Shown piece after piece: positions 17,659 through 42,422 of a stretch of 64,000 bases of DNA. Every line of letters starts with the position of its first letter. The stretch's first letter is position 1. The notes under the pieces were generated by a model that saw only the letters and a list, made by a program, of their open reading frames with translations, searched no databases and was not told the origin of the DNA. Origin of the DNA: Nereida sp. (lineage in GTDB: Bacteria > Pseudomonadota > Alphaproteobacteria > Rhodobacterales > Rhodobacteraceae); assembly GCF_965655635.1 (NCBI RefSeq), contig NZ_CBFHHE010000004.1:30158-94157 (forward strand), given 5' to 3'. A program made the translations under genes and the position numbers.

Positions 17659-17661
17659 GGA

Positions 17662-18093: not shown

Positions 18094-18095
18094 GA

Positions 18096-18167
18096 TTATG
18101 TCCATCCTGTCTTGATGCCAGCCGCCGTCGTAAAACGTCGCGCCGTGCTGCTTGAATTAATGATCAT
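18096..18167 (-). CDS. Putative 23-aa leader ORF (MIINSSSTARRFTTAAGIKTGWT)
   Basis: Strong SD GAGGAGG 5 nt before the ATG; the stop ends 2 nt before the YeeE ATG. Confidence 0.3.
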   Translation of the reverse strand: MIINSSSTARRFTTAAGIKTGWT

Positions 18168-18584
18168 GAATGCCTCCTCGGGACGATAACATAGCCGAAG
18201 AATACACCCCAACAGCTGCGCCTTCAGTGACATTGTCACTTAAGGAATAAGAAGCTGAAAACATGCTGGAACAGTGTTTCATTTTCAGTAGATAGGATCA
18301 GCCTGCGCGTCCTCGCAGACATTTTCTCAGAGGCTCTGAATGTACTCTGCGCGGCTAAACACTCAATCAGCAGACTAATCCCAGCGATTGAGCCAAATGG
18401 GTATCACCTTGGTTGTACGGTAAGGTTATGCCACTTCTGAACAGACTGGCTCTAGATAGCCTAGCCCCAAACCGTAAACGTTTGAACAGGTTTGCAACTT
18501 TGATTTTGCGTTGTCAGATCAGTGTGCCGTACCTGTCGATCCGCTAGCGAAGCTCAAATTGATGACGCCTACTAAATAATGAGT

Positions 18585-19178: not shown

Positions 19179-19318
19179 GAAGTTAGCCACCTTAACTACT
19201 GGTTTTATAATATAAATCGGAAATAAACTTACGCGAAAGACCGGCACAGCTTGGCTCAACACACGGGCCAGAAAACTCTCGGACGGCAGATTGCGCCCGA
19301 GAGTGTTTTTAAAATCTA

Positions 19319-20584: not shown

Positions 20585-20607
20585 TTCTTATTCCTCCCTT
20601 TATTGCC

Positions 20608-21294: not shown

Positions 21295-21296
21295 GA

Positions 21297-23865: not shown

Positions 23866-23889
23866 TTATTGAGTTCTCCAATTTTCTAT

Positions 23890-25587
23890 TCAAAGGCCAA
23901 CGACGTCGACGCTGTTGTTTTCTGACACTGTTACAGTACCGAGCTTGCGGATATGGTTCTCGACCACATCCCAGATTTGGGGTCCTTCGGTTCCCTCGTT
24001 CACGCTAGCCCAACCGGCAACAACGTAAGAATGAGACGGATCAATACGCTCGCCGGTAGCGAGTAATGTCATTTCGGAAATGCGCTCACCCTGGGGCTTG
24101 CTAACGTCAATCCGGTAACCGAGGCCACCGGTACGCACCATATCGCCACCCTGTTGATAATAAGGGTCCGGATTAAAGATGTTGTCGGCGACGTCTTCCA
24201 AAATCACTTTTAGAAATTCACCTGTCATTTCACTACGATACGCCTGACCGTAAGACATCGAAGTGACGCCAAACAAATCTTCGCGCGTGATATCCTGACC
24301 AGGCACAAGCGATGGCCCCCACCGCACGCCCGGACTTAGCGCAATCTGCGCATCACGTTCGCTGAGCAATGCGTCACAAATCAAATCATCCCAAGTTCCA
24401 TTGAAGTTCCCACGACGATACAAAAGGCTATCAGTACGTCCTAAAACTTCAGTCAGCTCAGGCAAATAGGGAGCGCGCTCGGCATCAATGATCGCAGCCA
24501 CTTCAGCATCTGGGGCAATTACATCAGAAAAAATTGGTATCAGTTTGGTGCGGTACCCCATCATCCGGCCATCTCGAATATCAAGATCGACACGGCTCAC
24601 AAACTTACCATTAGAGCCTGATGGCAATACGATCGTACCACCAACGACTACAGGTTCAGGTAGCGCATCATGTGTGTGACCAGATAGAATAACGTCGATG
24701 CCAGGAACTACGCTGGCCATCTTCTTGTCCACATCAAAACCGTTGTGGCTTAGAACAACAACGCATTCCGCACCTTCGGCGCGTACCTTCTCAACCATCT
24801 TCGCCATGTTTTCATCGCGAATACCAAACGAGAACTCTGGGAACATCCAGCCTGGATTGGCAATTGGCATGTATGGGAATGCTTGACCGATTACAGCAAT
24901 CTTCGTTCCACCACGCTCAAAAATTTTATAGGGTGGAAACAGATTAGATGGCTCGTCCCATTCAGAATCAAAGATGTTCTGCCCGAGCGCCGCAAAAGGA
25001 AGACTTTCGACAAGCTCGGTCACGCGCTCAGTGCCCAAAGTAAATTCCCAGTGGAACGTCATCGCGTCAGGCTCTAGCGCGTTCATGACATTCACCATGT
25101 CTTGCGCCTGTGTCATGTGCGTTGTGTAGGAGCCGTGCCAAGTATCGCCACCGTCCAACAAGATAGCATCGGGACGATCAGCACGAATAGCTTTCACAAC
25201 CGTCGCCACACGGTCCAAGCCGCCAACACGTCCGTACCCTTGTGCCAGAGACGAAAAATCGCCTGAACTCAGGGCATAGTGGCTGGGACTGCCGTCCTCG
25301 ATGCCGTACATTCTACGGAAATCAGCACCTGTGACGTGCGGAACCGCACCGGCATTGGCCCCAACCCCGATATTCACCGAAGGCTCGCGAAAATAGATTG
25401 GTTTCAGTTGTCCATGAATATCTGTGATGTGGATGAGTGAAACGTTCCCGTAGGTATCAAACTCGAGTAGCTGATCCTGACTGAGCCGCTGTTGGGCAGC
25501 CAAACGTGCCCAGTTCCCAAAGCCAGAGCCACCAACGATGGCTGAGGCCGCCATACCAACTTGCAAAAAATCTCGACGTGAAATCAT
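23890..25587 (-). CDS. soxB: Thiosulfohydrolase
   Basis: TAT SRRDFL, HITDIHGQL.P.YFREPS, DGGDTW, HWEF, SGHTHD, RRGNF and DPYYQQGGDM motifs. Confidence 0.96.
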   Translation of the reverse strand: MISRRDFLQVGMAASAIVGGSGFGNWARLAAQQRLSQDQLLEFDTYGNVSLIHITDIHGQLKPIYFREPSVNIGVGANAGAVPHVTGADFRRMYGIEDGSPSHYALSSGDFSSLAQGYGRVGGLDRVATVVKAIRADRPDAILLDGGDTWHGSYTTHMTQAQDMVNVMNALEPDAMTFHWEFTLGTERVTELVESLPFAALGQNIFDSEWDEPSNLFPPYKIFERGGTKIAVIGQAFPYMPIANPGWMFPEFSFGIRDENMAKMVEKVRAEGAECVVVLSHNGFDVDKKMASVVPGIDVILSGHTHDALPEPVVVGGTIVLPSGSNGKFVSRVDLDIRDGRMMGYRTKLIPIFSDVIAPDAEVAAIIDAERAPYLPELTEVLGRTDSLLYRRGNFNGTWDDLICDALLSERDAQIALSPGVRWGPSLVPGQDITREDLFGVTSMSYGQAYRSEMTGEFLKVILEDVADNIFNPDPYYQQGGDMVRTGGLGYRIDVSKPQGERISEMTLLATGERIDPSHSYVVAGWASVNEGTEGPQIWDVVENHIRKLGTVTVSENNSVDVVGL

Positions 25588-25818
25588 TCGATGAATTCTT
25601 TCTATAAGCTATATGAATATTGGAATGTCATTTCGTGCACATTTCCATATTCAGGGTTGGTTGCGGATCAATTGGAGCAATTGGCTAAAGCGGTTTCGGA
25701 AGACCGTCTGGTTTTACCGGCTGGTCTTAAAAACAAATGTGAGAACCAAAGGTGTCGCGGCCTTAAACCGTAACTAAGTGCTGAAAATTAATTCAGGCAC
25801 CCTCTGGCGCAAATCTCA

Positions 25819-26148
25819 CTAAGAAACGCTGACCTTCTTTTTCGCCTCATAGATATCGCCATCGTCGTCGTACCATTTGAAAGTGAACTCACCACTTTCT
25901 GGGACAATCGCTTCAAACTGAAAATACGGGTTCGTAGAAATGGCCGGCTCAAGTGCGACATCAATCACATTTTCGCCGTTAAATTCGGCCGTAAAGCGGT
26001 TGATAATCGACCTCGGAATAAGGTTACCGTCATCATCCTTACGCTGACCGCTTTCCATTTTGTGGCTGATCAGTGTCTTGATTGTAATTGCCTCACCAGC
26101 TTCAGCTGTTTTGGGTACTTTCACCCGTGGTTTCACACCAGATGCCAT
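25819..26148 (-). CDS. soxZ: Sulfur carrier subunit Z
   Basis: IKTLISHKMESGQRKD, AISTNPYF.F and W.DDDG motifs; SD AGGAGA before MASGVKPRVK (109 aa). Confidence 0.96.
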   Translation of the reverse strand: MASGVKPRVKVPKTAEAGEAITIKTLISHKMESGQRKDDDGNLIPRSIINRFTAEFNGENVIDVALEPAISTNPYFQFEAIVPESGEFTFKWYDDDGDIYEAKKKVSVS

Positions 26149-26210
26149 ATTGTATCTCCTAGGTATATTGTCAGCACCGCTGACAGTATGAATATTTGAA
26201 GTGCAGCTAA

Positions 26211-26648
26211 TTAGCCGCCACAACCACCGATGGTCACTTTGACATTTGCCTTAGCCATCTGGAATGAACCGTCTTCCATCTCTGCAACAGCCACGACGTT
26301 CTGCGTTGTGGATAGTCGGATTCGTGTAGACGCTGTGCGCGACGCACTCAGCGCACCAAACTTGAAGGTGGCAACGCTTGGAGTTGGGTTCCCATCAGCG
26401 AACAAAGTGATCGCAACAGCACCCGGAGCATCTATTTCTACGGGAACAGTGTTGCCATTCTCAGCAATTTCAGGGGCCGTTATGGAAATGCCACCTTCGA
26501 CAGCACCTGCGCCGCCTGTAAGAGCTGCAATTGCATCATCTGTCAGGCTTGCAAGGGCCGGCGTACCTACAACAGCGGTCATCGCCAATGCGCAACCACC
26601 CAAAGAAAGGATCGAGCGCCTGTTAAACTGTCTAGTATGGGTAGTCAT
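26211..26648 (-). CDS. soxY: Sulfur carrier subunit Y
   Basis: TAT-like NRRSIL, APEIAENGNTVPV and intact swinging arm VKVTIGGCGG. Confidence 0.96.
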   Translation of the reverse strand: MTTHTRQFNRRSILSLGGCALAMTAVVGTPALASLTDDAIAALTGGAGAVEGGISITAPEIAENGNTVPVEIDAPGAVAITLFADGNPTPSVATFKFGALSASRTASTRIRLSTTQNVVAVAEMEDGSFQMAKANVKVTIGGCGG

Positions 26649-27015
26649 GTCGGTAGGTTTCCCTTCCTGTAGTTAAAAAGTGAGAGACGGTGAATTCGCA
26701 ACAGCGCGCTTGATCAAAGAGGCGTTGGGCGGGTGTTACAACCGGATGCCTTCTATGGCCAGTGGAGATACAAACAGTCGATGACGCATATTGCAGCATT
26801 ATTAGTCGCCCCTCCCAAGCCGATTCAGTTGCCGATTTATGGTATGCTAATGGACACCAACACATTCACGCAACAACAAATTCAATTAAAAGAATTGTTA
26901 TATTTGTTAGCAGGTGCAGAAAAATAAGTAATATTTTGCGCATAATGCCAATCTGGAAAGGCCAAACAGACTACTGGACTATACAACACTTAGCCACAAT
27001 GCCGCAGCGCAGCAG

Positions 27016-27167
27016 TCAGCTGTAAGGATATAAATCGGGTAAAATGAGCTTCAAAAGCCCCAGTCCAAAGTCATTCAGCAATCGCGTAGGTTGGCTTACA
27101 GGGCCGCAAACCATCTTACATGTAATAAGCCAGGCAGCCAAAACTCCGACGTTTTTGTTACACGCAT
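27016..27167 (-). pseudogene. Possible decayed 5' remnant of soxW
   Basis: An ATG 14 nt after the soxV stop, behind AGGGTGA. With +1 in the A5 run it reads MRVTKNVGVLAAWLIT...LNDFGL, signal-peptide-like and vaguely like the SoxW LGDDGL. No CxxC is left. Confidence 0.2.
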
Positions 27168-27181
27168 TCACCCTACGCTCA

Positions 27182-27922
27182 CTAGCCGAGCGTGCTAAAC
27201 CAGGGCACATAATCGAGCATCATTTGCGCAATAGCCCCAATCTGATCGGTCCCCACAAGAATTCCGAATGTAATCAGGCATAAACCAGTGACCTTTTCGA
27301 CTACCCCAAGATATGCCCTAAACCGCAAGATCCATGATGTGAACTGATCCACAAATAGCGATACGAGAACAAATGGCATGGTCATGCCCGCTCCGTAAAC
27401 AAATAATAACCATGCTCCCTCTGCAGCAGTATCTTGCGCGGCAGCCGTAAATAAAATTGCGGCAAGGACTGGCCCCACACATGGGGTCCAACCAAAAGCA
27501 AATGCCAACCCCACAACATAAGCGCCTACAAATCTTGAAGGATCAATCAAACGGGTTTCAATTCTGACCTGGCGGTGGAACGCAGCGATTTGAACGGTAC
27601 CCAAAAAATGCAGACCCATTACAATTAATAGGCACGAAGCCACCAATCGAATTACATCAAACCAATCTTGCACCAGCACACCCAGAGTGCTGGCACTCGC
27701 CCCCAAAGCGACAAATACTGTAATGATACCAAGACCGAAAAAGATAGAAGAAGTTACTGCCCGCGCCCGTCCAGAGATAATCGTGTTCTCGCTGGCTTGA
27801 GCTTCGTTAAGACGTGAGCCGGCAAAATAACTCACATAAAATGGCACTATCGGCAAAACGCAGGGGGACAAAAAAGACAAAAGGCCCGCTGTAAGGGCGC
27901 CAACTGTAGTCACCTCGAACAT
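27182..27922 (-). CDS. soxV: CcdA/DsbD-like membrane thiol-disulfide transporter
   Basis: SFLSPCVLP and FGWTPCVGPVL (both catalytic Cys); position divergent from soxS; SD GGAG before MFEV. Confidence 0.88.
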   Translation of the reverse strand: MFEVTTVGALTAGLLSFLSPCVLPIVPFYVSYFAGSRLNEAQASENTIISGRARAVTSSIFFGLGIITVFVALGASASTLGVLVQDWFDVIRLVASCLLIVMGLHFLGTVQIAAFHRQVRIETRLIDPSRFVGAYVVGLAFAFGWTPCVGPVLAAILFTAAAQDTAAEGAWLLFVYGAGMTMPFVLVSLFVDQFTSWILRFRAYLGVVEKVTGLCLITFGILVGTDQIGAIAQMMLDYVPWFSTLG

Positions 27923-28005
27923 TTTAACTCCGTCACTCACTTGAGCAATTTGCATAAAGGCATATATTGGAGGCATGAGAGACGTCAACGAAAGGGCGCT
28001 CCAGC

Positions 28006-28368
28006 ATGTTCAGAGCGATTTTTACAGCGACGTTACTTTGTATTCCCTGCACCGCATTTGCAGAGACATTGTTACTTATGGCTGAGAGGGACGGATGTTA
28101 TTGGTGTGATCGATGGGATGCTGAGATAGCAGAAATTTATCCAAAAACTTCTGAAGGAAAAACTGCTCGCCTTGAACGCTTTGATATCAAAACGGGAGCG
28201 CGAGACGTAGAACTTGAGAAGTCTGTCCGTTTTACACCCACTTTTATTCTTGTTAATGACGGTAAGGAAGTTGGCCGTATCGAAGGCTATCCCGGTGAAG
28301 ACTTCTTTTGGGCAATGCTTTCGATGATGCTCAAAGATGCTGATATACCTTTTGAACAAGCGAGTTGA
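28006..28368 (+). CDS. soxS: Periplasmic thioredoxin-like protein
   Basis: Signal peptide, GCYWC, FTPTF and RIEGYPGEDFFW motifs. Confidence 0.88.
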   Translation: MFRAIFTATLLCIPCTAFAETLLLMAERDGCYWCDRWDAEIAEIYPKTSEGKTARLERFDIKTGARDVELEKSVRFTPTFILVNDGKEVGRIEGYPGEDFFWAMLSMMLKDADIPFEQAS

Positions 28369-28757
28369 TCCCTATGGATAGTCAAACTGTCACATCCAAC
28401 ATCCGCACTGATGAAGCAAAGAGTAAACTGCCTGTGTTTGACATAAATATGTGCCCCGAGGACATGGAGAAAATGGTTGCTAACGCCGAACAGGCATCAA
28501 GCTTCCTAAAGGCGATCAGTCACGAAGGTAGATTGATGATTTTGTGTCATCTGGCATTGGGCGAAAGGTCTGTAACAGAGCTTGAAGAGCTTTTATCTGC
28601 TCGGCAGGCAAGCGTTTCACAACAGCTAACTCGGCTCCGCTTTGAAGGCCTGGTAAAGCCTCGTAGAGATGGCAAGGCTATTTACTATAGCTTGACAGAT
28701 GACCGCCCTCGGCAAATCATAGAAGTAGTATATGATCTGTTTTGCAAAAACAGCTAG
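28365..28757 (+). CDS. soxR: ArsR/BigR-type sulfane-sensing repressor
   Basis: LKAISHEGRLMILCHL, SQQLTRLR and C-terminal LFC (two Cys as in BigR/SqrR/SoxR); start at 28365 or 28374. Confidence 0.88.
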   Translation: MIPMDSQTVTSNIRTDEAKSKLPVFDINMCPEDMEKMVANAEQASSFLKAISHEGRLMILCHLALGERSVTELEELLSARQASVSQQLTRLRFEGLVKPRRDGKAIYYSLTDDRPRQIIEVVYDLFCKNS

Positions 28758-28793
28758 CCAAACTTCTCGCCCAAGTTTGGTCGGGAGGATTAG

Positions 28794-29849
28794 ATGTCTA
28801 TGGAAGTTCTTGGAGAAGCAAACACAATAGCTTTGATAGGCCTACTGGGCGGAATAGCCCTTGGGTTAGCCGCAAGGCTGGGCCGCTTTTGCACTTTAGG
28901 TGCAATTGAGGATTATCTCTATGGAGCTGACCCCAGGCGTATGGGAATGTGGGGTGTCTCTGTTGGAGTAGCAATTATCGGAACACAGGTGTTGTTAGGT
29001 GCCGCTTTTGTCGAAGGCAGCTACGTCGCATATCTATCACGCGCCTGGAACCCGCTCAGCACAGTCATAGGTGGGCTGCTTTTTGGATACGGCATGGCCC
29101 TGACGGGCAACTGCGGCTATGGAGCGCTCGCACGACTAGGTGGTGGTGACCTACGGGCATTTGTCATTGTGCTGGTTATGGGGCTTTCCGCATATTTCGT
29201 CATGTCAGGTCCTCTCGCCCATTTGCGAGTAATGTTGTTTCCCGTGGTACAAAGCTCAGACACAAGCCAAGGGTTGGCCCAGTTGTTGAATGGTTTTGGC
29301 GTAGAACCTTGGGTGGTTGGTATCGTAGCAGGGACGGTTATTGTTCTAGCATCGCTTCGAACTGCACGAGGCAAACCTTTTCAAAGCTACGCGTTATGGG
29401 GAGTGCTCGTGGGCCTTGCCATCACATCCGGCTGGGTGGGCACACATTGGGTGGCGACAGTCGGCTTTGACGGCGAACCTATCCGCACACATACTTTTGC
29501 GGCACCCGTTGGAGATACAATCTTCTATAGCATGACAGCATCCGGAAATACTGTTTCGTTTAGCGTAGGTTCCGTCATGGGCGTCATTATTGGAGCCGCA
29601 TTTGGTTCAATGTTCAAAAAGCAATTCCGCTGGGAGGCGTGCGAAGATCCGCGAGAGCTGAAACGACAGATTTTTGGAGCCGCGCTAATGGGTGTCGGCG
29701 CAATATTGGCGGTAGGGTGTAGCGTGGGTCAGGGTATCGCTGCGTTTTCAGTCTTAGCATACAGTGCACCGGTTACACTTATCGCAATCTTTTGTGGCGC
29801 GGCATTTGGTCTGAGGCAACTAATCACAGGCTTTAAAGTCGCTCTCTAG
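28794..29849 (+). CDS. soxT: Full-length YeeE/YedE sulfur transporter
   Basis: RFCTLG, GNCGYG and GCSVGQG Cys motifs; third gene of the soxSRT arrangement. Confidence 0.85.
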   Translation: MSMEVLGEANTIALIGLLGGIALGLAARLGRFCTLGAIEDYLYGADPRRMGMWGVSVGVAIIGTQVLLGAAFVEGSYVAYLSRAWNPLSTVIGGLLFGYGMALTGNCGYGALARLGGGDLRAFVIVLVMGLSAYFVMSGPLAHLRVMLFPVVQSSDTSQGLAQLLNGFGVEPWVVGIVAGTVIVLASLRTARGKPFQSYALWGVLVGLAITSGWVGTHWVATVGFDGEPIRTHTFAAPVGDTIFYSMTASGNTVSFSVGSVMGVIIGAAFGSMFKKQFRWEACEDPRELKRQIFGAALMGVGAILAVGCSVGQGIAAFSVLAYSAPVTLIAIFCGAAFGLRQLITGFKVAL

Positions 29850-32026: not shown

Positions 32027-33415
32027 GTGGACACACTTCTTCTTTCTCGTATTCAGTTTGGTGCGAATATCTCGTTTCACATTCTGTTTCCAACAATCAC
32101 CATCGCATTAGGATGGGTATTGTTGTTCTTTAAGGTGCGCTTCACCGCGACCGCAGAGCAAAAGTGGATGGACGGCTATATGTTCTGGGTGAAGGTATTT
32201 GCATTATCTTTCGCCATGGGTGTCGTGTCCGGTATCACGATGTCGTTCCAATTCGGCACAAACTGGCCAGGCTTCATGGAAACCGTTGGCAATGTGGCGG
32301 GCCCTCTACTGGCCTATGAAATCATGACTGCCTTTTTCCTTGAGGCGGTATTTCTTGGAATTATGCTGTTTGGGGCCTCACGGGTGAAACCTTGGGTGCA
32401 CACCTTGGCCACGTTTTTAGTCGCCTTCGGGACAACAATGTCGACGTTCTGGATCATCGTTTTGAATTCATGGATGCACACCCCCCAAGGCTATGAGGTG
32501 ATCGACGGCGTTGTGCACGCAACCAACTGGCTTGAGATCATCTTCAACCCGTCAATGCCTTATCGCTTTATTCACATGATGCTGGCGTCTGGACTGACGG
32601 TTGCCTTTTTGGTGGCGGGTATTTCGGCCCTGCGGATGTTGTGGGGCGACCACGGCGAGGACGTAAAGACTGCGCTTCGCGTTGGTGTCATCGCTGGTGC
32701 TGGACTTATCCCCCTACAAATCCTGGCTGGTGATTTTCACGGACTAAATACTCTCGAATATCAGCCAGCAAAAGTAGCTGCGATGGAAGGCAACTGGGAG
32801 ATGGGCCCGAATGTGCCGTTGGTGCTTTTTGCTCTGCCCGACCAGGAGGCGCGTGAAAACCGCTTTGAGATTGCTGTTCCTAACGGTGCCTCACTCATCT
32901 TGACCCACAAAGCGGACGGTGTCGTGCCAGGTCTGAATGACTTTGTCACTGAGGACGGTGAGGTGTTGCACCCACGCGTGGCGCCTGTGTTTTTCAGCTT
33001 CCGTATCATGGTGGGCACAGGCATGGCGATGCTGTTACTGTCATGGGGTGGTGTTGTGATGCTGCGCAAATACGGCGCCGAGGCGATGCCAAAGACGGCT
33101 CTCTATGCATTCTGTGCCATGAGCTTTAGCGGCTGGATCGCGACATTAGCCGGTTGGTACACTACTGAAATCGGACGGCAGCCATGGCTTGTCCAAGGCG
33201 TGCTCACCACCAAAGACGCCGTAAGCGACGTACCAAGCGCAATGGTTCTAAGTACACTGATTGGGTACCTTGTGGTCTATGCGGTGCTAGTCGTGGCTTA
33301 TATTGGTGTCATCACGTATCTCGCGCGCAAGGCGACCCGTGGCGAGCCATTCTCATCGCGTACTTACCCGCGTCGTGGCGAAGCGGTAGCATCCAACCTG
33401 CAACCAGGAGAATAA
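32027..33415 (+). CDS. cydA: Cytochrome bd quinol oxidase subunit I (short Q-loop, CioA-like)
   Basis: HILFP, FQFGTNW, RFIHM, QPAKVAAMEG, FRIMVG and EIGRQPW motifs. Confidence 0.95.
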   Translation: MDTLLLSRIQFGANISFHILFPTITIALGWVLLFFKVRFTATAEQKWMDGYMFWVKVFALSFAMGVVSGITMSFQFGTNWPGFMETVGNVAGPLLAYEIMTAFFLEAVFLGIMLFGASRVKPWVHTLATFLVAFGTTMSTFWIIVLNSWMHTPQGYEVIDGVVHATNWLEIIFNPSMPYRFIHMMLASGLTVAFLVAGISALRMLWGDHGEDVKTALRVGVIAGAGLIPLQILAGDFHGLNTLEYQPAKVAAMEGNWEMGPNVPLVLFALPDQEARENRFEIAVPNGASLILTHKADGVVPGLNDFVTEDGEVLHPRVAPVFFSFRIMVGTGMAMLLLSWGGVVMLRKYGAEAMPKTALYAFCAMSFSGWIATLAGWYTTEIGRQPWLVQGVLTTKDAVSDVPSAMVLSTLIGYLVVYAVLVVAYIGVITYLARKATRGEPFSSRTYPRRGEAVASNLQPGE

Positions 33416-34428
33416 TGATGGATTATTTCGGTGATCCCGCGGTCTGGCTGCCATGGACTTTTGCGGCCCTGATGGGTCTATCCATTCTGATCTACGTGGT
33501 GTTGGATGGATTTGACCTTGGGGTTGGGTTGCTGATGCCGCTCTCCAATGACGATGAAAAAGACCAACTCGTGGCGTCCATCGGCCCTTTTTGGGATGCC
33601 AATGAAACGTGGCTAGTACTTGCGGTCGGTCTTTTGCTGGTGGCCTTCCCCACGGCCCACGGAACTATTTTGACGGCACTTTATCTACCAGTTTTTGTGA
33701 TGCTTATCGGGCTCATCTTGCGGGGCATTTCATTTGAAATGCGCGCCAAGGCACCCAGTACCCAAAAACCAATGTGGAACGGCGCTTTTTTTGCGGGCTC
33801 GCTTATGGCCTCACTCAGCCAAGGTTTCATGCTAGGCATGTATATCATGGGCCTGACTTGGACCCTGCCCAATGTGATTTTCGCGCTTCTCACGGCAGTT
33901 TTCTTAACTGTTGGCTACAGCTTTATTGGTGCGGCATGGCTTATCTCAAAAACGGATGGGCAATTACAACGACATGCGATCCGGTGGGCAAAGGGGGGCA
34001 TTTGGGGCCTCATCCTTGGGATAGGGTCGATTTCATTGGCCACTCCTTTTGTCAGCACCCGTATTTTCGATAAGTGGTTTAGTTGGCCAGAAGCGCTTTA
34101 TCTTTCGCCAATGCCAATCTTGTCTGCAGCGCTAGTTGTGTTCTTGTGGTGGCAATTAGGGCGGATGCCCCTCACTAATGACAGATGGGCATGGACGCCG
34201 TTTGCCGCAGCAATTGGGTTGTTTACGTTAGCTTTTGCTGGGATGGCGTACTCATTCTACCCCTATGTAGTACCAGAAAAAATCACGATTTACGAGGCCG
34301 CATCAGCACCGGAAAGCCTTTTCATTATTTTGATTGGAACGCTTTTCGTTGTGCCTGCGATCTTGGCGTATACGGTCCTGTCATATTACATTTTCCGCGG
34401 TAAAGCGACGGCGCTTCGATACGACTGA
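33415..34428 (+). CDS. cydB: Cytochrome bd quinol oxidase subunit II
   Basis: LDGFDLGVG, IGPFWDANETWLV and LRGISFE motifs; TAATG overlap with cydA. Confidence 0.95.
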   Translation: MMDYFGDPAVWLPWTFAALMGLSILIYVVLDGFDLGVGLLMPLSNDDEKDQLVASIGPFWDANETWLVLAVGLLLVAFPTAHGTILTALYLPVFVMLIGLILRGISFEMRAKAPSTQKPMWNGAFFAGSLMASLSQGFMLGMYIMGLTWTLPNVIFALLTAVFLTVGYSFIGAAWLISKTDGQLQRHAIRWAKGGIWGLILGIGSISLATPFVSTRIFDKWFSWPEALYLSPMPILSAALVVFLWWQLGRMPLTNDRWAWTPFAAAIGLFTLAFAGMAYSFYPYVVPEKITIYEAASAPESLFIILIGTLFVVPAILAYTVLSYYIFRGKATALRYD

Positions 34429-34538
34429 TGCGTGTAAGCCTTCGCAACAATGAACATAAGCTGTTCGGCGCTTTGCCTTCTCATTGAACCATCTAGCACA
34501 TAGCCTTTGGTCAAACGACGCTTAGATAGGAGCAAACC

Positions 34539-35471
34539 ATGAGTTGGAACCCAAGCATTGAACCACATTGTCCTGATGCAGGGTCGATGGACTCTATTGA
34601 GACATTAATCGTTCCGCGTGCTCGTGATATTGGTGATTTTGAAGTTCGTCGTGCGTTGCCTTCGGTTGAACGCAAGATGGTCGGCCCGTTTGTATTTTTT
34701 GATCAGATGGGCCCCGCAGAATTTTTGACCGATCAAGGCATTGATGTGCGGCCGCACCCGCATATTGGTCTCGCAACAGTGACCTATTTATATCAAGGCG
34801 AATTCCAGCACCGTGACAGCCTTGGCACAAATCAAATGATTTACCCCGGTGAGGTAAATTGGATGATCGCGGGTAACGGAGTAACGCATTCCGAGCGAAC
34901 CAGCGCACAAACAAGAGCAAGTGGTGGCAAATTGTTTGGCATTCAGACTTGGGTTGCATTGCCTGAAGAGCATGAAGAAACAAATGCGGGCTTCGAACAC
35001 CATAAAGAAGCCGAGCTGCCGTTTTTGGAAGGCGAAGGTAAACAGGTCCGCTTGATCTTGGGGTATGCTTGGGGTGAACGCGCACCCACCAAAACATTCT
35101 CTGAGATGTTTTATGGAGACGTGCTGCTTGAACGCGGTGCGATGCTTCCCCTGCCCGATGATCATGAGGACCGTGGGCTTTATGTAACCTCAGGGTCCAT
35201 TGAAGTGGCTGGGGATACTTTTGAAGCTGGTCAAATGATGGTGTTCCGCCCAGGTGACAAGATTACCGTAAAGGCCAGTTCTTCAGGCGCGCGTCTAATG
35301 GCCTTGGGCGGTGAAACCCTCAATGGTCCCCGTCATATTTGGTGGAACTTTGTAGCGTCTTCGCGTGACAAGATTGAAGCCGCCAAGGTTGCTTGGGCGA
35401 CCGGTGATTGGGCGCATGGTCGGTTCCAATTGCCACCTGACGATAATGATGAATTCATCCCCCTGCCCTAG
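34539..35471 (+). CDS. Pirin-family protein
   Basis: GPFVFFDQ, HPHIGL.TVTY, H.DSLG and GVTHSE (iron ligands). Confidence 0.93.
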   Translation: MSWNPSIEPHCPDAGSMDSIETLIVPRARDIGDFEVRRALPSVERKMVGPFVFFDQMGPAEFLTDQGIDVRPHPHIGLATVTYLYQGEFQHRDSLGTNQMIYPGEVNWMIAGNGVTHSERTSAQTRASGGKLFGIQTWVALPEEHEETNAGFEHHKEAELPFLEGEGKQVRLILGYAWGERAPTKTFSEMFYGDVLLERGAMLPLPDDHEDRGLYVTSGSIEVAGDTFEAGQMMVFRPGDKITVKASSSGARLMALGGETLNGPRHIWWNFVASSRDKIEAAKVAWATGDWAHGRFQLPPDDNDEFIPLP

Positions 35472-35696
35472 TTTGCCAATTTAAGTGGAAAAAGCAAAAA
35501 TCGGCTAAGTAAGATCATTTGTCTCAATTGGTTAGGCGTAAAGGTTAAAATAATCTAGGCAACTCACTTTAGCGAAACAATTTTCCACCGTGTGTAATTA
35601 TGCAGAATATTGTCCTTCATGAGGGCTCTTTGGCCCCATTTACCAAAATTAAATTTTCCCTTAATGCCGCTTTGAAACAAATTTAGGGACCGCGTC

Positions 35697-36620
35697 ATGA
35701 GACTTATTCTTACCACACTCGTCGCAATCGTTGGCATTGCTACAGCGCCGCTCGCGGCAACATTTGGACCGCTTGTCGAAGCTAATGATCTTGCCAACGC
35801 TCTAGATGCGAAACAACCTGTTCTTCTTGATATCCGCAACGACGGCTATGCGGACTCCCACGTGGACGGCGCACTTTGGGCACCGTACAAATTGTTCCGT
35901 GGCACCAAAGACAATCCCGGTGGCCTTATGGATTTGGCGGTTTTGGAAGAGCACCTTGAGAAGCTAGGCCTCGAACAAGATGAACCAATTGTCATTATTT
36001 CAGAAGGTAACACTGATACAGATTTTGGTGCAGCAGCGCGTGTCTATTGGACACTTAAATCAACAGGCTTCACTGACCTGAGCATCCTGAACGGTGGTCG
36101 GATTGCATGGAGAAATGCAAACCTGCCCCTAAACAACACGCTTGAAACCGCAGTACCAAGCCAGCTGAACCTTGAGTTTGATACCACTTGGTTGGCGGAT
36201 ACTCAGCACGTGTCTTCGGTGGTGAAAGGTGAGAATTCAGGGCTGTTGGTTGATGCACGGCTGCCCGAGTTCTTTGCCGGCGACAAAGCACACGGTGCTG
36301 CGAAGCGTCCAGGAACGTTGCCCGGTGCTATTAATCAGTCCTACACAACATTTTTCGAAAATGGTGCCGCAGCCATCTCAACCCCGACAGATATCTCCGC
36401 TTTGAAAGCATCACTCGGCATTAAGGGTGACGAAGAGGTAATCTCGTTTTGCAACACTGGGCACTGGGCCGCGACACATTGGTTCGCTCTGTCCGAGCTT
36501 GCGGATGTTGAAAACGCAAAGCTCTACGCTGGATCGATGGTTGAGTATTCCAACGCGGACTTGCCGATGGAAAACACACCAGGCGTCTTTAAGAACCTGC
36601 TTCGTCAAATTGGGTTCTAG
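35697..36620 (+). CDS. Exported tandem-domain rhodanese/sulfurtransferase
   Basis: Signal peptide, LLDIR, AARVYWTL, ILNGG..AW, DAR...F.G, GTLPGA, active loop FCNTGHWA and LYAGSM.EY motifs. Confidence 0.9.
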   Translation: MRLILTTLVAIVGIATAPLAATFGPLVEANDLANALDAKQPVLLDIRNDGYADSHVDGALWAPYKLFRGTKDNPGGLMDLAVLEEHLEKLGLEQDEPIVIISEGNTDTDFGAAARVYWTLKSTGFTDLSILNGGRIAWRNANLPLNNTLETAVPSQLNLEFDTTWLADTQHVSSVVKGENSGLLVDARLPEFFAGDKAHGAAKRPGTLPGAINQSYTTFFENGAAAISTPTDISALKASLGIKGDEEVISFCNTGHWAATHWFALSELADVENAKLYAGSMVEYSNADLPMENTPGVFKNLLRQIGF

Positions 36621-36622
36621 CT

Positions 36623-37747
36623 TTGTCTGATCTTGCGCAACCAATTGCGGGGGGCAACCCCCGCAAATTTTTCACGTCTGCGGCAATGTTATTCTTTGCT
36701 GTATTCATATGCTTGTCTGTGTCTGCAATTGCCGGTCTTCGATATGGTTTAATGATTGCGATCGGCCTTGGATTTGGAGCCACTTTAGAAGGACTGCGCT
36801 TTGGCTTTGCAGGGCCATGGCGGGCGATGATTTTACGACGTGACCCTTCGGGTATCTGGGCTCAGCTCCTTGCAATCGGAATTGTAGCGTTATTTGCGAT
36901 ACCACTCATCAATAGTAACTCTGGTGAAGTTAACGCCGCAGCCGCACCCATTGGATACGCTATGGTTTTGGGCGCCTTTGTTTTTGGTGTCGCAATGCAA
37001 ATTGTGTTGGGATGTGGGTCTGGCACTTTGGTAAACGCTGGATCAGGCAATCTTGTTTCTCTGATAGCCTTGCCCTTCTTTGCCGTTGGCAGTTTTGCAG
37101 GGGCATTTCACCTATCTTGGTGGACGGGTCTTGGCGCGCTTCCAGCACAAAATCTAACTGGTTGGGAAGGTACCTTCACGACTTTGCTCGTTTTGTCATG
37201 CGTTGCTGCGTTTTTGTGGTGGAAGGCAGAGCCACAGCTACGCCGACTTCCCAAGAGATTGATACTAGCAGCAGTGCTAGTTGCTGTATTAGCGCTTCTT
37301 AACTTGGTCGTATCGGGACAACCGTGGGGCGTAGTTTATGGTCTGGGGCTTTGGGTCGCTAAGGGTGCATATTTTTCTGGTGTGGACCTATCCGGATCAG
37401 TTTTTTGGACCGCAGCAGGATCGCTAGAACGCATCCAGGCGAGCGTACTGACAGATTATACGTCACTCACAAATATCGGTTTGATCGCAGGCGCGTTCTT
37501 GGTGGCTTTTTGGCGAAAGGGCTTGTCACAACCACTCCCAAAGGTGCCAATGTCAGCGTGGGTCTACGCAGCAGTCGCAGGGTTTCTAATGGGGTACGCT
37601 GCTAGATTGGCATTTGGGTGTAACGTTGGGGCGTTCTTTTCTGGCATATCCACGGGCAGCCTTCACGGGTGGGTCTGGTTTGCTTTTGCCTTTATGGGAT
37701 CATACTTAGGAATTTATTTGCGCCCACGATTAGGGCTAGAGGTATGA
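36623..37747 (+). CDS. Full-length YeeE/YedE transporter
   Basis: FGFAGPWR, GCGSG.L and FGCNVGAFFSG motifs; starts 2 nt after the rhodanese stop. Confidence 0.9.
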   Translation: MSDLAQPIAGGNPRKFFTSAAMLFFAVFICLSVSAIAGLRYGLMIAIGLGFGATLEGLRFGFAGPWRAMILRRDPSGIWAQLLAIGIVALFAIPLINSNSGEVNAAAAPIGYAMVLGAFVFGVAMQIVLGCGSGTLVNAGSGNLVSLIALPFFAVGSFAGAFHLSWWTGLGALPAQNLTGWEGTFTTLLVLSCVAAFLWWKAEPQLRRLPKRLILAAVLVAVLALLNLVVSGQPWGVVYGLGLWVAKGAYFSGVDLSGSVFWTAAGSLERIQASVLTDYTSLTNIGLIAGAFLVAFWRKGLSQPLPKVPMSAWVYAAVAGFLMGYAARLAFGCNVGAFFSGISTGSLHGWVWFAFAFMGSYLGIYLRPRLGLEV

Positions 37748-37926
37748 CTTTGACAAGATATCTCACTGCGTCACTCGCGATAACACTTGTCGCCAGCTTT
37801 CTGGTCTTTGACCTAATCATGATACCGCCGAACCCATACGTTGCGCCGAGTGCCATAAGCCTTGGATCAGGTGAGGTAGCAGTAGGCGGGTTTTGCGGAG
37901 ATTTACCAGTTACGACGAACAAATGA
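37744..37926 (+). CDS. About 60-aa single-TM microprotein with GGFCG motif
   Basis: ATGA overlap with the YeeE stop (or TTG 37750 with SD GAGGT). One hydrophobic helix, a Pro-rich linker and a lone Cys in GGFCG. Confidence 0.6.
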   Translation: MTLTRYLTASLAITLVASFLVFDLIMIPPNPYVAPSAISLGSGEVAVGGFCGDLPVTTNK

Positions 37927-38114: not shown

Positions 38115-40550
38115 ATGAGAGATCAGGCGCGCGTAGTGGTTATTGGTGGCGGTATCGCTGGATGTTCAGCGCTCTACCACCTTACGCAAGAAGGCTGGAC
38201 CGACGTTATGCTGATTGAGCGTGACGAGTTGACATCTGGCACCACTTGGCACTCAGCCGCCCAGGTCACCAACTTTGGTACGACCCAAACGATGGTCGGC
38301 CTGAAGACACACTCGATCAATCTATACAAAGAGCTGCGCGACGACCCCGAATACCCCGTCGGCTATAATTATGGCGACGGGGGCATCCGCCTTGCCAATA
38401 CAGAAGCGCAAATGGATGGATACCGGCAGTTCACATCAATGGCAGCGGGCATGGATGTTGAATTTGAGGTACTTGATGCTGATGAATGCGCGCGGCGGCA
38501 CCCACTTATTTCGACAGATAATCTGCTCGGAGGTCTATGGGATCCAACTGACGGCCATATTGATCCCGCACAGTTGTGCCAAGCACTGGCTCGTCGTGCG
38601 CGTCTTGCCGGCGCTGAAGTTAACCGCCACACGCCAGTCACAGGGCTCACTCAACATGCGGACAGCACATGGACCGTCCACACTGAGAAGGGTGACGTAA
38701 AGTGCGAAATTATCGTGAACGCAGGCGGCTACAGGTGCAATGAGATTGGCGCGATGATGGGCGTCCAGCACCCAGTTGCATCAATGGAACACCAGTATTT
38801 TCTAACCGAAGACATCCCTGCGATTGCTGAGGCAGGTCACCGGATGCCACTGCTGCGTTGCCCGATCAGCGACTATTACTCACGCCAAGAAAAGGGTGGG
38901 TTGCTGCTTGGATTTTATGAACAGGATTGCCGGACTTGGGGGATGGACGGCATTGATCCTAAATTTACGAATGCGCTGTGCCCAGATGATTTAGATCGCG
39001 TCACTGATGTCCTTGAAGGTGCGTTTGAGCGGATGCCAGTGTTGATGGAAACAGGCATTCGCGAAGTGGTAAACGGCCCCATTACCTACACCATTGATGG
39101 CGCGCCTCTTGTTGGCCCGATCCCCAGAAAACGAAACGCATTCTGCATCATTGGTCTGCGCGCAGGTCTGGGTGAAGGGGGCGGCCATGGCTGGCTCTTG
39201 GCGCAGCAGATCGTTCACGGTGAAGCGCAATATGACACGTGGGTTATCGATCCGCGGCGCTTTACCGGTCATGCGACTGTCGAGTTAACGGCACTCAAAG
39301 CGATCGAGGACTATCAAAACGAATTCCGCTTCCATTTCCCACATGAACACCGTCCCGCCGGACGCCCCATGAAAACAACACCACTCACACAGGTCCTTGT
39401 CTCTGAAGGGGCGGAAATGGGCACCATCAACGGTTGGGAGCGGGTTGATTACATCAAACCGACACCAGATTTCAAAGAAATTCTTGGGTTCAAGTTTAAC
39501 GAAGTCCACGGCGTTGTGGCTAAAGAAGTCGCTGCAATCTCAACGAACGTTGGGATGACAGAGGTTTCGGGGTTCAACCGCTTTGAACTGACGGGCGCGG
39601 ATGTCCACAGCTTTCTTGATCGTATGATGTGCGGCACTGTCAGCAAGCGCGAGGGCCGTGTGGGCCTAGGCTATCTTCTAAACAATCACGGCCTGCTCAA
39701 AGCCGAAGCAACAATTGCGAATATCCCTGCGTCTGATCGTGGCCCAAAACGTGTTTGGTACGGGTCGGCTGCGGCCTCTGAATACCACGATATGGATTGG
39801 CTAAAAGCGCATATCAAAGCAGACGAAGACGTCGAAATTCGCTCACTTACAAACGCACAAACGATCCTTGTGATTGCCGGACCAAACGCGCGCGATGTTT
39901 TGTCTATGGCTGCTCGCGGGGACTGGTCGCGTGAGGCATTTCCATGGCTGTCCGTGCGTGAAACTCACATCGGAATTGCGCCCGCGACTGTGCTTGGCGT
40001 CAGTTTTTCAGGAGAGCTGGCCTATGAGATCCATGTTCCGAATGAAAGTTTACATGCGGCTTACGTTGCTCTGCGTAAGGCTGGCGAGGCGCATGGCATG
40101 ACACTATTTGGATCACGGGCTGTGGAATCCATGCGAATGGAGAAAGGCTTTTTGCACTGGAAGTCCGATATTCTGACGGAATTTGATCCCTTTGAAACTG
40201 GACTAGAGCGTTTTGTCAGGCTCAACAAAGGCGACTTTATTGGTAAAGATGCACTTGAAAAACGTATGGTCGCTGGCCAACAGCATAAACTGGTGACGCT
40301 CATAATTGACGCAAAGCACGCACCCGCCCACGGAGGCGCATCTGTACGTCTGGATGGGCGGATTATCGGGACCGTAACTTCCGGGGACTGGGGCCACCGC
40401 GTAGATAAAAACCTTGCCTACGCATTTATAGAGCCTGAATTTTCTCAAGTAGGCACAACAATGACGGTCGATATTATTGGCGAAGCATTCGCAGCCGAAG
40501 TCATCGAAAGCGGACCGTACGATCCCTATTATAGCCGCATTCGCAGCTAA
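38115..40550 (+). CDS. GcvT-family FAD oxidoreductase (dimethylglycine dehydrogenase-like)
   Basis: VIGGGIAG, LTSGTTWHSA, NGPI.YT.DG, GGG.G..LA and C-terminal aminomethyltransferase domain (SMRMEKG). Confidence 0.92.
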   Translation: MRDQARVVVIGGGIAGCSALYHLTQEGWTDVMLIERDELTSGTTWHSAAQVTNFGTTQTMVGLKTHSINLYKELRDDPEYPVGYNYGDGGIRLANTEAQMDGYRQFTSMAAGMDVEFEVLDADECARRHPLISTDNLLGGLWDPTDGHIDPAQLCQALARRARLAGAEVNRHTPVTGLTQHADSTWTVHTEKGDVKCEIIVNAGGYRCNEIGAMMGVQHPVASMEHQYFLTEDIPAIAEAGHRMPLLRCPISDYYSRQEKGGLLLGFYEQDCRTWGMDGIDPKFTNALCPDDLDRVTDVLEGAFERMPVLMETGIREVVNGPITYTIDGAPLVGPIPRKRNAFCIIGLRAGLGEGGGHGWLLAQQIVHGEAQYDTWVIDPRRFTGHATVELTALKAIEDYQNEFRFHFPHEHRPAGRPMKTTPLTQVLVSEGAEMGTINGWERVDYIKPTPDFKEILGFKFNEVHGVVAKEVAAISTNVGMTEVSGFNRFELTGADVHSFLDRMMCGTVSKREGRVGLGYLLNNHGLLKAEATIANIPASDRGPKRVWYGSAAASEYHDMDWLKAHIKADEDVEIRSLTNAQTILVIAGPNARDVLSMAARGDWSREAFPWLSVRETHIGIAPATVLGVSFSGELAYEIHVPNESLHAAYVALRKAGEAHGMTLFGSRAVESMRMEKGFLHWKSDILTEFDPFETGLERFVRLNKGDFIGKDALEKRMVAGQQHKLVTLIIDAKHAPAHGGASVRLDGRIIGTVTSGDWGHRVDKNLAYAFIEPEFSQVGTTMTVDIIGEAFAAEVIESGPYDPYYSRIRS

Positions 40551-42190
40551 GTTTCGGGTGTGAAATTTTGCGCGACGGGACCGCGGTAGGCTGTTATCAT
40601 TTCCGGGTCTACTTCGGTGCCGTCCTTCAAGAACGGCAAAATTCCCTTGCGCAGTGACTTACCGCGCATCGCAGCGATATCGTCATCTGACCGCGTAACC
40701 CTTTGTGACATGCGTCGGCCCCACTTTGCCAAATAACCGTAAAGCCGGTCGATTTCAGCCTGATGTGTTGACCCTTTTGCAAGGTCGTGCACCTCGTTTG
40801 GGTCAATCTTCAAATCGAACAACATTGGACGGAAGCCCCCTTCCGCATGCATCATTTTGAAACGGCCATCAAACACCATGAATAGCCTCGCATCCCGGGG
40901 TTCAAGGCCCAACTTGACTGCCTGTGGTGTCGTTGAAAAATCATATTCGCTGATTGCGTAATCTCGGGTTTTTGTAGGCTGACCATGCAGAAACGGTACA
41001 AGGCTTTGGCCTTCAAGGATGTGAGCAGCGATTGTGCCACCGGCCACATCTACAAACGTAGGAACAAGATCAATAGCCTCGACGAGCGCATCGCACGTCG
41101 TGCCGCGCGTTGCATCTGCACTGCTCCGAGGATCAAAAATAATCATCGGCACTTTAACGGATGGCTCGTGAAAAAGATCCTTCTCACCAAGCCAATGATC
41201 CCCAAGAAAATCGCCATGATCTGACGTGAGAACGATCATCGTATCATCCAACTTGCCTGTCACTTCAAGGTGATCCAGAAGACGACCCAAGTGATCATCA
41301 CACTGCTTGATCAAGCCCATGTAAGCCGGCACCACTTTGGCACGCACATCATCATGTTGGAAAGCCGCTGCAATTTTATTGCCCATATATGCGTCATAAA
41401 CGGGGTGTGCGTTTTCACGCTCAACCGGATCACGGTTAGGTGGCAGAACGTGCTCGGGCTCGAATATATTATGGTAGGGTGCGGGCACAATATAGGGCCA
41501 ATGGGGCTTGATATAACTGACATGAGCGCACCAGGGCCCCTCAGCCGTATCGACAAATTTGATAGCCTCAGAGGTCAGCCACGCGGTCTCACTGTCTTCT
41601 TCGCGAATGTTTGCCGGCCTATCCGCATTATCAAACATCCAACCCGAGGCTTGCTCACCGTCTTGCAGACCAGCATTCGCATGAGCGGCCCACGGATTAT
41701 CCGCCTCATATCCTTTGGTCTTAAGGTACTCATTATAGGGCGAGCGTTGCTCGTCGTAAAATCCATCAGGACCTTGTGCCCAAAGCCCATCATCACGAAT
41801 AACAACGTCAAAACCACATTCCGCTTGGCGGGCACCAATCACGCTATCGGCCGCAAGGCCCAAACGCGCCATGCCTTCTGAATCTACGCGCATATGGGTT
41901 TTGCCGATCAAGTAGCAATCCATCCCTGCTTTGCGCAAATGATCCCCCATCGTCATTTCACCCACACGCAGCGGAAAACCGTTCCATTGTGCCCCGTGGG
42001 ATGACGTATAGCGGCCTGTGTAAAAGCTCATCCGGCTGGCACCGCAAATAGGTGATTGAACATATGCGTTCGTAAACCGCACTCCCATTTGCGCAACTCG
42101 GTCAAAATTTGGCGTGGACAGGTACGGGTGGCCAGCGCAACTCAAGTAATCGAACCGTAGTTGGTCATACATGATGAAAAGGATGTTCAT
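40547..42190 (-). CDS. Sulfatase (arylsulfatase / phosphonate monoester hydrolase group)
   Basis: NILFIMYDQLR, FGly motif variant CGASR, TGRY, GKTH, KPHWP and SDHGD.LGDHW.GEK motifs. Confidence 0.9.
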   Translation of the reverse strand: MNILFIMYDQLRFDYLSCAGHPYLSTPNFDRVAQMGVRFTNAYVQSPICGASRMSFYTGRYTSSHGAQWNGFPLRVGEMTMGDHLRKAGMDCYLIGKTHMRVDSEGMARLGLAADSVIGARQAECGFDVVIRDDGLWAQGPDGFYDEQRSPYNEYLKTKGYEADNPWAAHANAGLQDGEQASGWMFDNADRPANIREEDSETAWLTSEAIKFVDTAEGPWCAHVSYIKPHWPYIVPAPYHNIFEPEHVLPPNRDPVERENAHPVYDAYMGNKIAAAFQHDDVRAKVVPAYMGLIKQCDDHLGRLLDHLEVTGKLDDTMIVLTSDHGDFLGDHWLGEKDLFHEPSVKVPMIIFDPRSSADATRGTTCDALVEAIDLVPTFVDVAGGTIAAHILEGQSLVPFLHGQPTKTRDYAISEYDFSTTPQAVKLGLEPRDARLFMVFDGRFKMMHAEGGFRPMLFDLKIDPNEVHDLAKGSTHQAEIDRLYGYLAKWGRRMSQRVTRSDDDIAAMRGKSLRKGILPFLKDGTEVDPEMITAYRGPVAQNFTPET

Positions 42191-42422
42191 TTCTTGGTGC
42201 TGCCCTGTCTTGTAGACTTTGATTTCCACCAAGGCTTAGCACGCCAAGACAGGCTATTCACCACTGATAGTACATTTCTGGACCGACGGAATTATGCGGT
42301 TTGCACCTGATCCGCACTACGTGATCCAATTCATCAAAGTTTAAGATCGAAAGCCAGAATGCGAAAAAGCAAAAGACATCTTCCCTTGACTAGGTATAGA
42401 TTTGCCCCTTAGCTTACTATTA

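Follow-up and report, generated by a model that had tools for sequence, protein, structure and literature searches.

Gene organization of the cassette

The 64,000-nucleotide (nt) stretch of Nereida sp. DNA analyzed here (the window, part of contig C4, NZ_CBFHHE010000004.1) carries a cassette of three genes that encode an exported tandem rhodanese, a channel of the YeeE/TsuA fold and a membrane microprotein with a single cysteine, whose gene we call the microORF. By its YeeE gene, the closest named relative is Nereida ignava (97% amino-acid identity). The coordinates of the open reading frames (ORFs; Table 1) agree with the tightly coupled three-gene order, with a 2-nt gap and an ATGA overlap, that a preliminary description of this DNA had given. 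The gap between the rhodanese and YeeE depends on a TTG start at 36623, which is the only canonical start that retains the N-terminal "RK + helix" common to all YeeE orthologues. Because this helix is present in all orthologues and most of them begin between −4 and +4 nt from the rhodanese stop, both the TTG start and the 2-nt gap are supported.

Table 1 Positions in the window of the cassette genes, of residues and elements within them, and of other genes mentioned in the text (aa, amino acids; TM, transmembrane).
Feature	Position	Strand	Remarks
Exported tandem rhodanese (ORF1)	35697..36620	+	307 aa; PF00581 E=4e-19, two stretches
Codon of rhodanese Cys252	36450-36452		motif CNTGHWA
Rhodanese C-terminal amphipathic helix	36576..36617	+	consensus NxPGLxxNLLNQI; clade-specific; median hydrophobic moment 2.0
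YeeE/TsuA-fold channel (ORF2)	36623..37747	+	374 aa; TTG start; PF04143 E=7e-46
Terminator-like GC hairpin and T-run (ATTTTT)	36645..36666	+	9-bp stem, 7 GC pairs; inside the 5' end of the YeeE ORF
Codon of YeeE Cys131	37013-37015		invariant
Codon of YeeE Cys333	37619-37621		invariant
Microprotein (ORF3, microORF)	37744..37926	+	60 aa; ATG overlaps YeeE TGA as ATGA
Predicted microprotein TM helix	37750-37821		residues 3-26
Codon of microprotein Asp23	37810-37812		invariant
Codon of microprotein Cys51	37894-37896		within GGFCG
Intergenic region, presumed promoter region	35472..35696	+	225 nt, pirin stop to rhodanese ATG
Full sox cluster	16247-29849		
Half-size PmpA-like Sulf_transp gene	17662-18105		in the sox cluster
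Rhodanese gene of the sox cluster	18585-19355		
soxZ	25819-26223		
soxY	26211-26648		
soxV	27182-27988		
soxR	28365-28757		ArsR-type
soxT	28794-29849		three-cysteine
cydAB and pirin genes	within 32027-35471		upstream flank
Dehydrogenase and sulfatase genes	within 38115-42232		downstream flank

The microORF is conserved and linked to YeeE

A tblastn search located the microORF immediately behind the YeeE orthologue at each of the 80 genome loci retrieved (YeeE identity 60-97%), always with the rhodanese upstream. The 80 loci span Rhodobacteraceae, Roseibium/Stappia, Hoeflea, Cohaesibacter, Saliniramus and the gammaproteobacterium Granulosicoccus. The three genes occupy different reading frames in every locus, and YeeE and the microORF share the 4-nt start/stop overlap in 72 of the 80. 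The encoded microproteins are 53-63 aa long and, in 77 of 80 cases, contain exactly one Cys, located 4-14 residues from the C-terminus. The ORF, its architecture of a TM segment plus a tail, and its Cys, which the preliminary description had picked out in a single sequence, are thus conserved in both Alpha- and Gammaproteobacteria, with strict linkage of the gene to the pair of rhodanese and YeeE. We also searched 301 Rhodobacteraceae genomes, about one per genus, for the microprotein in six frames and for YeeE at the protein level. The microprotein was present in 28 of them, and YeeE orthologues (at least 55% identity) were found in exactly the same 28, at adjacent coordinates. With 80 of 80 loci and 28 of 28 positive genomes, the linkage is far beyond chance.

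At the nucleotide level, the frame of the microORF was open in 81 of 81 loci and started at the YeeE stop. Across the three codon positions, nucleotide diversity was 0.38/0.26/0.62, the third varying most, and the median pairwise ratio of nonsynonymous to synonymous substitution (dN/dS) was 0.31. These measures identify the microORF as a genuine, conserved gene on which purifying selection acts. When 1.84 billion representative proteins were searched with a profile, 84 clusters were recovered, nearly all of 45-80 aa, with the common pattern helix-D...(N/D)P(Y/F)...GSG...G(G/A)(F/H)C. Five distant members were checked (E 1e-4 to 1e-9), and all five lay directly after a Sulf_transp gene, with a rhodanese gene upstream wherever the contig was long and intact enough to show it. 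Seven distant YeeE paralogues (35-39% identity) had neither the rhodanese nor the microprotein.

The cassette occurs in about 9% of the Rhodobacteraceae genera sampled, and also in Stappiaceae, Hoeflea, Cohaesibacter, Saliniramus and Granulosicoccus. Its distribution is patchy, as one genome of the same genus was without the cassette and some copies reside on plasmids, which fits a mobile accessory module. The flanks of the 81 loci contained no conserved neighbor besides the three cassette genes, and the genes that flank the cassette in the window were not kept beside it in other genomes; the three genes therefore move as a unit.

The rhodanese is exported and carries one cysteine

The first gene encodes two rhodanese domains (PF00581) in tandem, with the catalytic Cys in the C-terminal one. 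This residue, Cys252, is the sole Cys of the protein and the only Cys that is invariant across 81 orthologues, and it aligns without gaps with the catalytic Cys of Escherichia coli SseA (1URH) and Azotobacter RhdA (1E0C). The named equivalog models were not reached, as the protein scored 91.6 bits against a cut-off of 250 for SseA/3-MST and 53.6 against 200 for ExtH. Approximately residues 1-22 of the window protein form a signal peptide with a basic N-terminus, a hydrophobic core and an AxA-type site, and the same three features recurred in 81 of 81 orthologues, where the AxA-type site lies shortly before a conserved FGPL. The rhodanese, which the preliminary description had already called exported from one sequence, is therefore a Sec-exported protein; a Tat signal was rejected, because the second Arg is not conserved.

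The C-terminus of the rhodanese has an extension that starts past the end of the alignments to solved rhodaneses and is absent from them. Its hydrophobic moment (median 2.0) exceeds the background of the same proteins (mean 0.71, 95th percentile 1.32), suggesting an amphipathic helix that may dock the rhodanese to the membrane, to a partner or to a complex.

The channel retains two of the three pore cysteines

The second protein belongs to the YeeE superfamily, with a PF04143 match of 157.6 bits (cut-off 27) over profile positions 3-309 of 310. Its AlphaFold2 (AF2) model (predicted local distance difference test, pLDDT, 88.5) shows the hourglass TsuA fold, and the top Foldseek matches were 6LEO, 8J4C and 8K1R, led by 6LEO, the Spirochaeta thermophila thiosulfate transporter (StYeeE), with a target-normalized TM-score of 0.77. 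The protein is nevertheless far from the named NCBIfam TsuA/YedE models, scoring 62 bits against a cut-off of 400 for NF052577, 31.6 against 645 for NF041049 and 67 against 350 for YedE/FdhT. All YeeE orthologues have an extra N-terminal helix, TM0 (residues 13-37), preceded by basic residues.

In StYeeE, three cysteines line the pore, with C293 nearest the periplasm, C91 at the center and C22 nearest the cytoplasm (PMC7449682), and C22 abuts Cys17 of the cytoplasmic YeeD, the "fourth cysteine" (PMC7449682; PMC11073785). When aligned to StYeeE, the cassette channel has two invariant cysteines, Cys131 (equivalent to C91) and Cys333 (equivalent to C293), whereas the position of C22 is taken by an invariant glycine, Gly61, in RFGFAGPWR. 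The YeeD/TsuB-type (TusA-like) partner is missing as well, as had been noticed at the outset: no TusA/YeeD gene was found in or beside the operon, none is conserved in the flanks of the 81 loci, and the only PF01206 match in the genome (2.2 Mb, 95% complete) lies on another contig. The cassette thus totals four invariant cysteines, namely rhodanese C252, microprotein C51, and YeeE C131 and C333, two of which are on exported or, by the topology proposed below, outward-facing parts. Compared with YeeE-YeeD, the two inner rungs of the cysteine ladder (C22 and YeeD C17) are missing, and two rungs have been added on the outer side.

The microprotein is a predicted TM helix with a cysteine-bearing tail

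The third ORF had been described as about 60 aa with one TM helix, a flexible tail and a lone Cys in GGFCG, and each of these traits was recovered. AF2, run with a 78-sequence alignment, predicted a helix at residues 3-26 (pLDDT 88-97) followed by a tail of ~35 residues that is predicted to be disordered (pLDDT 50-64). A conserved Arg5 precedes the helix and the invariant Asp23 ends it. The other invariant residues are P35, G41, S42, G43 and the single C51, so that the tail carries NPY, P35, G41-S42-G43 and Cys51 as its motifs, and the consensus reads MTRR, helix, D, xxxx, PPNPYxAPxxxALGSGxxxxGGFCGALP. Of the 15 columns that are invariant or nearly so, 13 are found from Asp23 onward, as expected if the tail, and not a face of the helix, is the functional part. 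Around the Cys, the motif is GGFCG(A/D)LP or G(A/G)HCA, with 4-14 residues following the Cys; this motif and spacing do not fit a lipobox or a CaaX-type modification, both of which were rejected.

In two ORFs from metagenomes, YeeE and the microprotein are joined in frame, the microprotein following the C-terminal end of YeeE. One (P0049) is a 126-aa fragment on an 825-bp contig, in which the YeeE C-terminus runs into the microprotein, and the other (P0058) is a degenerate 309-aa YeeE that retains neither of the Cys loops. The C-terminus of YeeE is cytoplasmic, as established with natural and engineered YeeE-YeeD fusions of solved structure (PMC11073785). Since the fusions join the microprotein to this cytoplasmic end, its helix should run from inside to outside and its tail should be periplasmic. 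We infer that the microprotein is anchored N-in/C-out with Cys51 in the periplasm, on the same side as the exported rhodanese. A salt bridge between Asp23 and Arg40, an invariant residue at the outer end of TM0 of YeeE, was considered and found unsupported, because paralogues without the microprotein sometimes carry the Arg too.

Annotation of the microprotein

No Pfam or NCBIfam family matched the window microprotein or any of its 78 members; the Pfam search of the members extended to E up to 0.1. Small YgaP-like TM proteins (DUF2892, PF11127) of ~60 aa with a conserved Cys are found near rhodanese and YeeE genes. Unlike the microprotein, they have two helices and their Cys lies within the membrane domain, and neither DUF2892 nor any other Pfam family was matched by the 78 members at this threshold. 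The Prokaryotic Genome Annotation Pipeline (PGAP) labels the orthologues "hypothetical protein" beside a "YeeE/YedE family protein" and a "rhodanese-like domain-containing protein". The earlier expectation that standard annotation could miss the gene was therefore right in part: PGAP does call the gene, but leaves it unnamed. The full-text literature searched, including the key YeeE and SoxT papers, contained no description of the trio or of the microprotein, and the term "undescribed" used for it before holds as far as Pfam, NCBIfam and this literature reach. On these grounds, the microprotein is a new family, unnamed by any domain database, and the cassette is a variation on the theme of YeeE plus a cysteine-bearing partner.

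A possible route for sulfur and its alternatives

The preliminary description had interpreted the microprotein as a membrane-tethered carrier of sulfur to YeeE, and the comparisons above partly support this. The reading is plausible and came through all of the computational checks, including those that could have refuted it. We see an even chance that the microprotein is an N-in/C-out subunit of the channel whose disordered tail carries sulfane sulfur from the rhodanese to the channel mouth. That the cassette as a whole is a self-contained, translationally coupled unit for moving reduced sulfur across the inner membrane, with its Cys chemistry shifted toward the periplasm relative to YeeE-YeeD, may equally well prove true or false.

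In such a machine, the microprotein would be the N-in/C-out eleventh helix of the channel complex, and the C-terminal amphipathic helix would hold the rhodanese at the membrane. In the simplest scheme, the rhodanese would take sulfane sulfur from a periplasmic donor, e.g., from thiosulfate with release of sulfite, and load Cys51. The tail, docking via its NPY and GSG motifs, would swing Cys51 back and forth from the active site of the rhodanese to the mouth of the channel, where the sulfur would be presented to Cys333, pass Cys131 and be released to a cytoplasmic thiol acceptor. Because the cassette has only four invariant cysteines, any thiol chemistry of C51 with a conserved cassette Cys must involve the catalytic Cys or a channel Cys. 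Alternatively, the arm might merely present or release the substrate at the channel mouth with no covalent relay. The fully covalent version, a Cys-to-Cys relay from Cys252 to Cys51, Cys333 and Cys131 that starts outside the membrane and makes the microprotein an independently arisen, minimal tethered equivalent of SoxY, is a tentative proposal that we consider somewhat unlikely. A carrier arm as such has a precedent, as the SoxY Cys has been proposed to hand sulfur to the cysteine line of the SoxT channel (PMC11582611).

The phylogeny of the cassette hints at co-evolution that links the microprotein arm to the rhodanese. A monophyletic group of 10 loci has switched GGFCG to G(A/G)HCA, and in the same group the rhodanese has five clade-diagnostic columns (E84T, D107E, A211S, N213Y and Y284W), whereas YeeE has none. 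Among 19 comparable clades, the 17 outside the G(A/G)HCA lineage had 0-3 diagnostic rhodanese columns, and the nested 7-tip and enclosing 11-tip versions of the group scored 3 and 4.

Several points weigh against a carrier arm loaded by the rhodanese. A lone thiol in the periplasm would be exposed to oxidation by DsbA. The rhodanese loop, CNTGHW, is without the basic residues typical of thiosulfate:cyanide sulfurtransferases, and thiosulfate is only a candidate sulfur donor. The co-evolution signal comes from a single evolutionary event and is weak evidence, and the fusions are fragmentary or degenerate genes that support the proposed topology only weakly. The covalent relay is, in addition, chemically uncertain, because the cysteines of StYeeE lie ~7 Å from one another and are believed to interact with free thiosulfate through hydrogen bonds and not by covalent attachment (PMC7449682; PMC11582611).

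The strict co-inheritance and translational coupling of the microprotein with YeeE, the invariant Asp at the outer end of its helix and the in-frame fusions are also compatible with a structural or regulatory accessory subunit like CydX, AcrZ or KdpF. Such a subunit would stabilize or gate YeeE, and its Cys would reversibly cap Cys333 as a disulfide or persulfide redox plug without carrying any substrate; the YeeE-type gene soxT1A indeed neighbors the gene of a 56-aa single-helix protein without Cys (PMC11582611). We consider this explanation unlikely, since conservation of the microprotein lies mainly in the tail and not on a helix face, every copy of the module has an exported rhodanese with the catalytic Cys as its only one, and the sole change beside the Cys tracks changes in the rhodanese, not in YeeE. 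A different view of the N-terminal half is that the hydrophobic segment is a cleaved Sec signal peptide, so that the protein would be released into the periplasm as a peptide of ~30 residues containing one Cys, serving as a soluble carrier or scavenger. The basic N-terminus and hydrophobic stretch of 17-20 residues would suit this, as would the AxA-like small residues after Asp23 in many orthologues (e.g., DASA|T and DQATA|E). Several features, however, make a cleaved peptide highly improbable. The window protein reads DLIM-IPP at this point, where small residues occupy neither −1 nor −3, and in several orthologues the residue at +1 is Pro. The Asp in front of the putative site is invariant, the helix is predicted to extend over 24 residues, and a fusion to the C-terminus of YeeE, on the cytoplasmic side, needs a segment that spans the membrane.

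The direction of transport is a separate matter, as nothing in the sequences fixes it. If the cassette worked outward, excess cytoplasmic sulfane sulfur would exit via YeeE to the microprotein Cys, from which the rhodanese would dispose of it, e.g., onto sulfite to give thiosulfate, or onto cyanide. In favor of such a role, the cassette encodes no cytoplasmic acceptor and has no link to the Sox genes of thiosulfate oxidation (SoxY in 18 of 28 cassette-positive genomes versus 194 of 301 overall). We regard it as quite improbable, however, because all characterized YeeE-family members import their substrates (TsuA, SoxT1A/B and the PmpAB-type uptake of zero-valent sulfur; PMC7449682; PMC11582611) and the channel cysteines retained in the cassette are the entry-side ones of the import model. 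As for the microORF itself, it might be untranslated, its conservation reflecting an RNA or DNA element at the 3' end of yeeE; when a genome is GC-rich, this stretch is frequently open in its other frames as well. We give this almost no credence, given the codon-position diversity and dN/dS reported above, the frame that is open in all 81 loci and starts at the YeeE stop, conservation at the amino-acid level down to ~35% identity, and the absence of an Rfam match.

Relation to known sulfur transport systems

The nearest characterized relative of the cassette is TsuA-TsuB (YeeE-YeeD; E. coli, Spirochaeta thermophila; 6LEO, 8J4C, 8K1R), which shares the channel fold (TM-score 0.77), the equivalents of C91 and C293, and a small partner encoded by an adjacent gene, whose single conserved Cys extends the Cys line of the channel (a role that is predicted in the case of the cassette). 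The partners themselves differ, since that of TsuA is a soluble cytoplasmic protein of TusA fold that docks by C22, whereas that of the cassette is a single-helix membrane protein with its Cys on a tail that is probably periplasmic. The cassette further differs in the invariant Gly at the C22 position, the extra N-terminal helix, the exported rhodanese that is always upstream, and scores far below the NCBIfam TsuA cut-offs.

The comparison of the microprotein with the swinging arm of SoxY, drawn in the preliminary description, stands as a functional analogy only. Both have a single Cys near the C-terminus on a Gly-rich flexible arm, which lies in the periplasm in SoxY and, by the inferred topology, in the microprotein. 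However, neither the window microprotein (searched at E up to 1) nor any of the 78 members (E up to 0.1) matched the SoxY domain PF13501. SoxY is a soluble folded domain with a terminal GGCGG and SoxZ as its partner, whereas the microprotein would be a membrane-anchored peptide in which GGFCG or GAHCA is placed 4-14 residues from the end.

Among other YeeE-family importers, SoxT1A and SoxT1B of Hyphomicrobium denitrificans are thought to receive sulfur from a periplasmic protein. The gene beside soxT1A, Hden_0678, encodes a 56-aa N-in single-helix protein with no function assigned, which, unlike the microprotein, has no Cys (PMC11582611). SoxT proteins have all three cysteines, as does the SoxT encoded in the window, which resembles the cassette YeeE only at the level of motifs, and their proposed periplasmic partners are thioredoxin-like, not rhodaneses. 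PmpAB/YedE1E2, linked to the uptake of zero-valent sulfur (PMC11582611), resemble the cassette in having only the C91 and C293 equivalents; they differ in being split into two four-helix halves, and neither an exported rhodanese nor a Cys-tailed microprotein has been reported as their obligate partner.

The only characterized YeeE partner, YeeD/TsuB, acts from the cytoplasmic side, and work on SoxT only speculates on a protein that presents sulfur in the periplasm. In the cassette, all candidate presenting parts are encoded together in a compact three-gene unit that moves among genomes and plasmids, and its hosts are common marine heterotrophs and sulfur oxidizers. If the covalent relay were true, the cassette would constitute a complete machine for importing persulfide from the periplasm into the cytoplasm without a TusA-like acceptor, and would offer a direct handle on how sulfur is presented to YeeE/SoxT channels.

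Genomic surroundings and related loci

A full sox cluster lies ~6 kb upstream of the cassette in the window. It contains a soxH-like metallo-beta-lactamase gene, the half-size PmpA-like Sulf_transp and a rhodanese gene, further soxF, cytochrome genes, soxCD, soxB, soxZ and soxY, and then soxV, a thioredoxin gene, soxR and the three-cysteine soxT. A link between the cassette and Sox was nevertheless rejected, because the cassette is no commoner in SoxY-positive genomes than overall: SoxY was present in 18 of 28 cassette-positive genomes and in 194 of 301 overall (64% in both). The cassette therefore does not depend on SoxYZ, and its proximity to sox in the window is probably incidental.

Immediately upstream of the cassette are genes for a cytochrome bd oxidase (cydAB) and pirin, and downstream are those for a DAO/GCV_T dehydrogenase (811 aa, dimethylglycine-dehydrogenase-like by our reading) and a sulfatase. 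The 225-nt region between pirin and the rhodanese contained one weak sigma-70-like site (35473-35501), which was not above shuffle expectation, and a search of Rfam gave no match upstream of the operon, with no riboswitch or other RNA element found. The terminator-like hairpin, a strong one, sits 25 nt past the rhodanese stop. The number of such sites in the region was not above shuffle expectation; the hairpin is possibly an intra-operon attenuator, by which the membrane genes might be expressed less strongly than the rhodanese.

Metagenomes contained decayed cassette copies (L082, L083/L084 and P0087), namely the two YeeE fusions described above and, in P0087, a 70-aa deletion remnant in which the rhodanese signal peptide runs into the tail of the microprotein. 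On pSymB of Sinorhizobium meliloti 1021 (L091, 1958-4565), a rhodanese and a YeeE (39% identity) are followed, with an ATGA overlap, by a 124-aa protein that has the same helix-Asp start and a long Cys/Pro-rich tail (APCAAGAPCSAAAPC...). The profile comparison with the microprotein was not significant (E=0.031, probability 1.6%), so that homology is not supported and we regard this protein as a positional analogue. Among the seven distant YeeE paralogues, four (L098, L100, L101 and L102) are followed by a gene for an exported DUF302 protein of ~160 aa; this clade is also without the C22 cysteine, and the DUF302 protein may represent a second undescribed type of YeeE partner.

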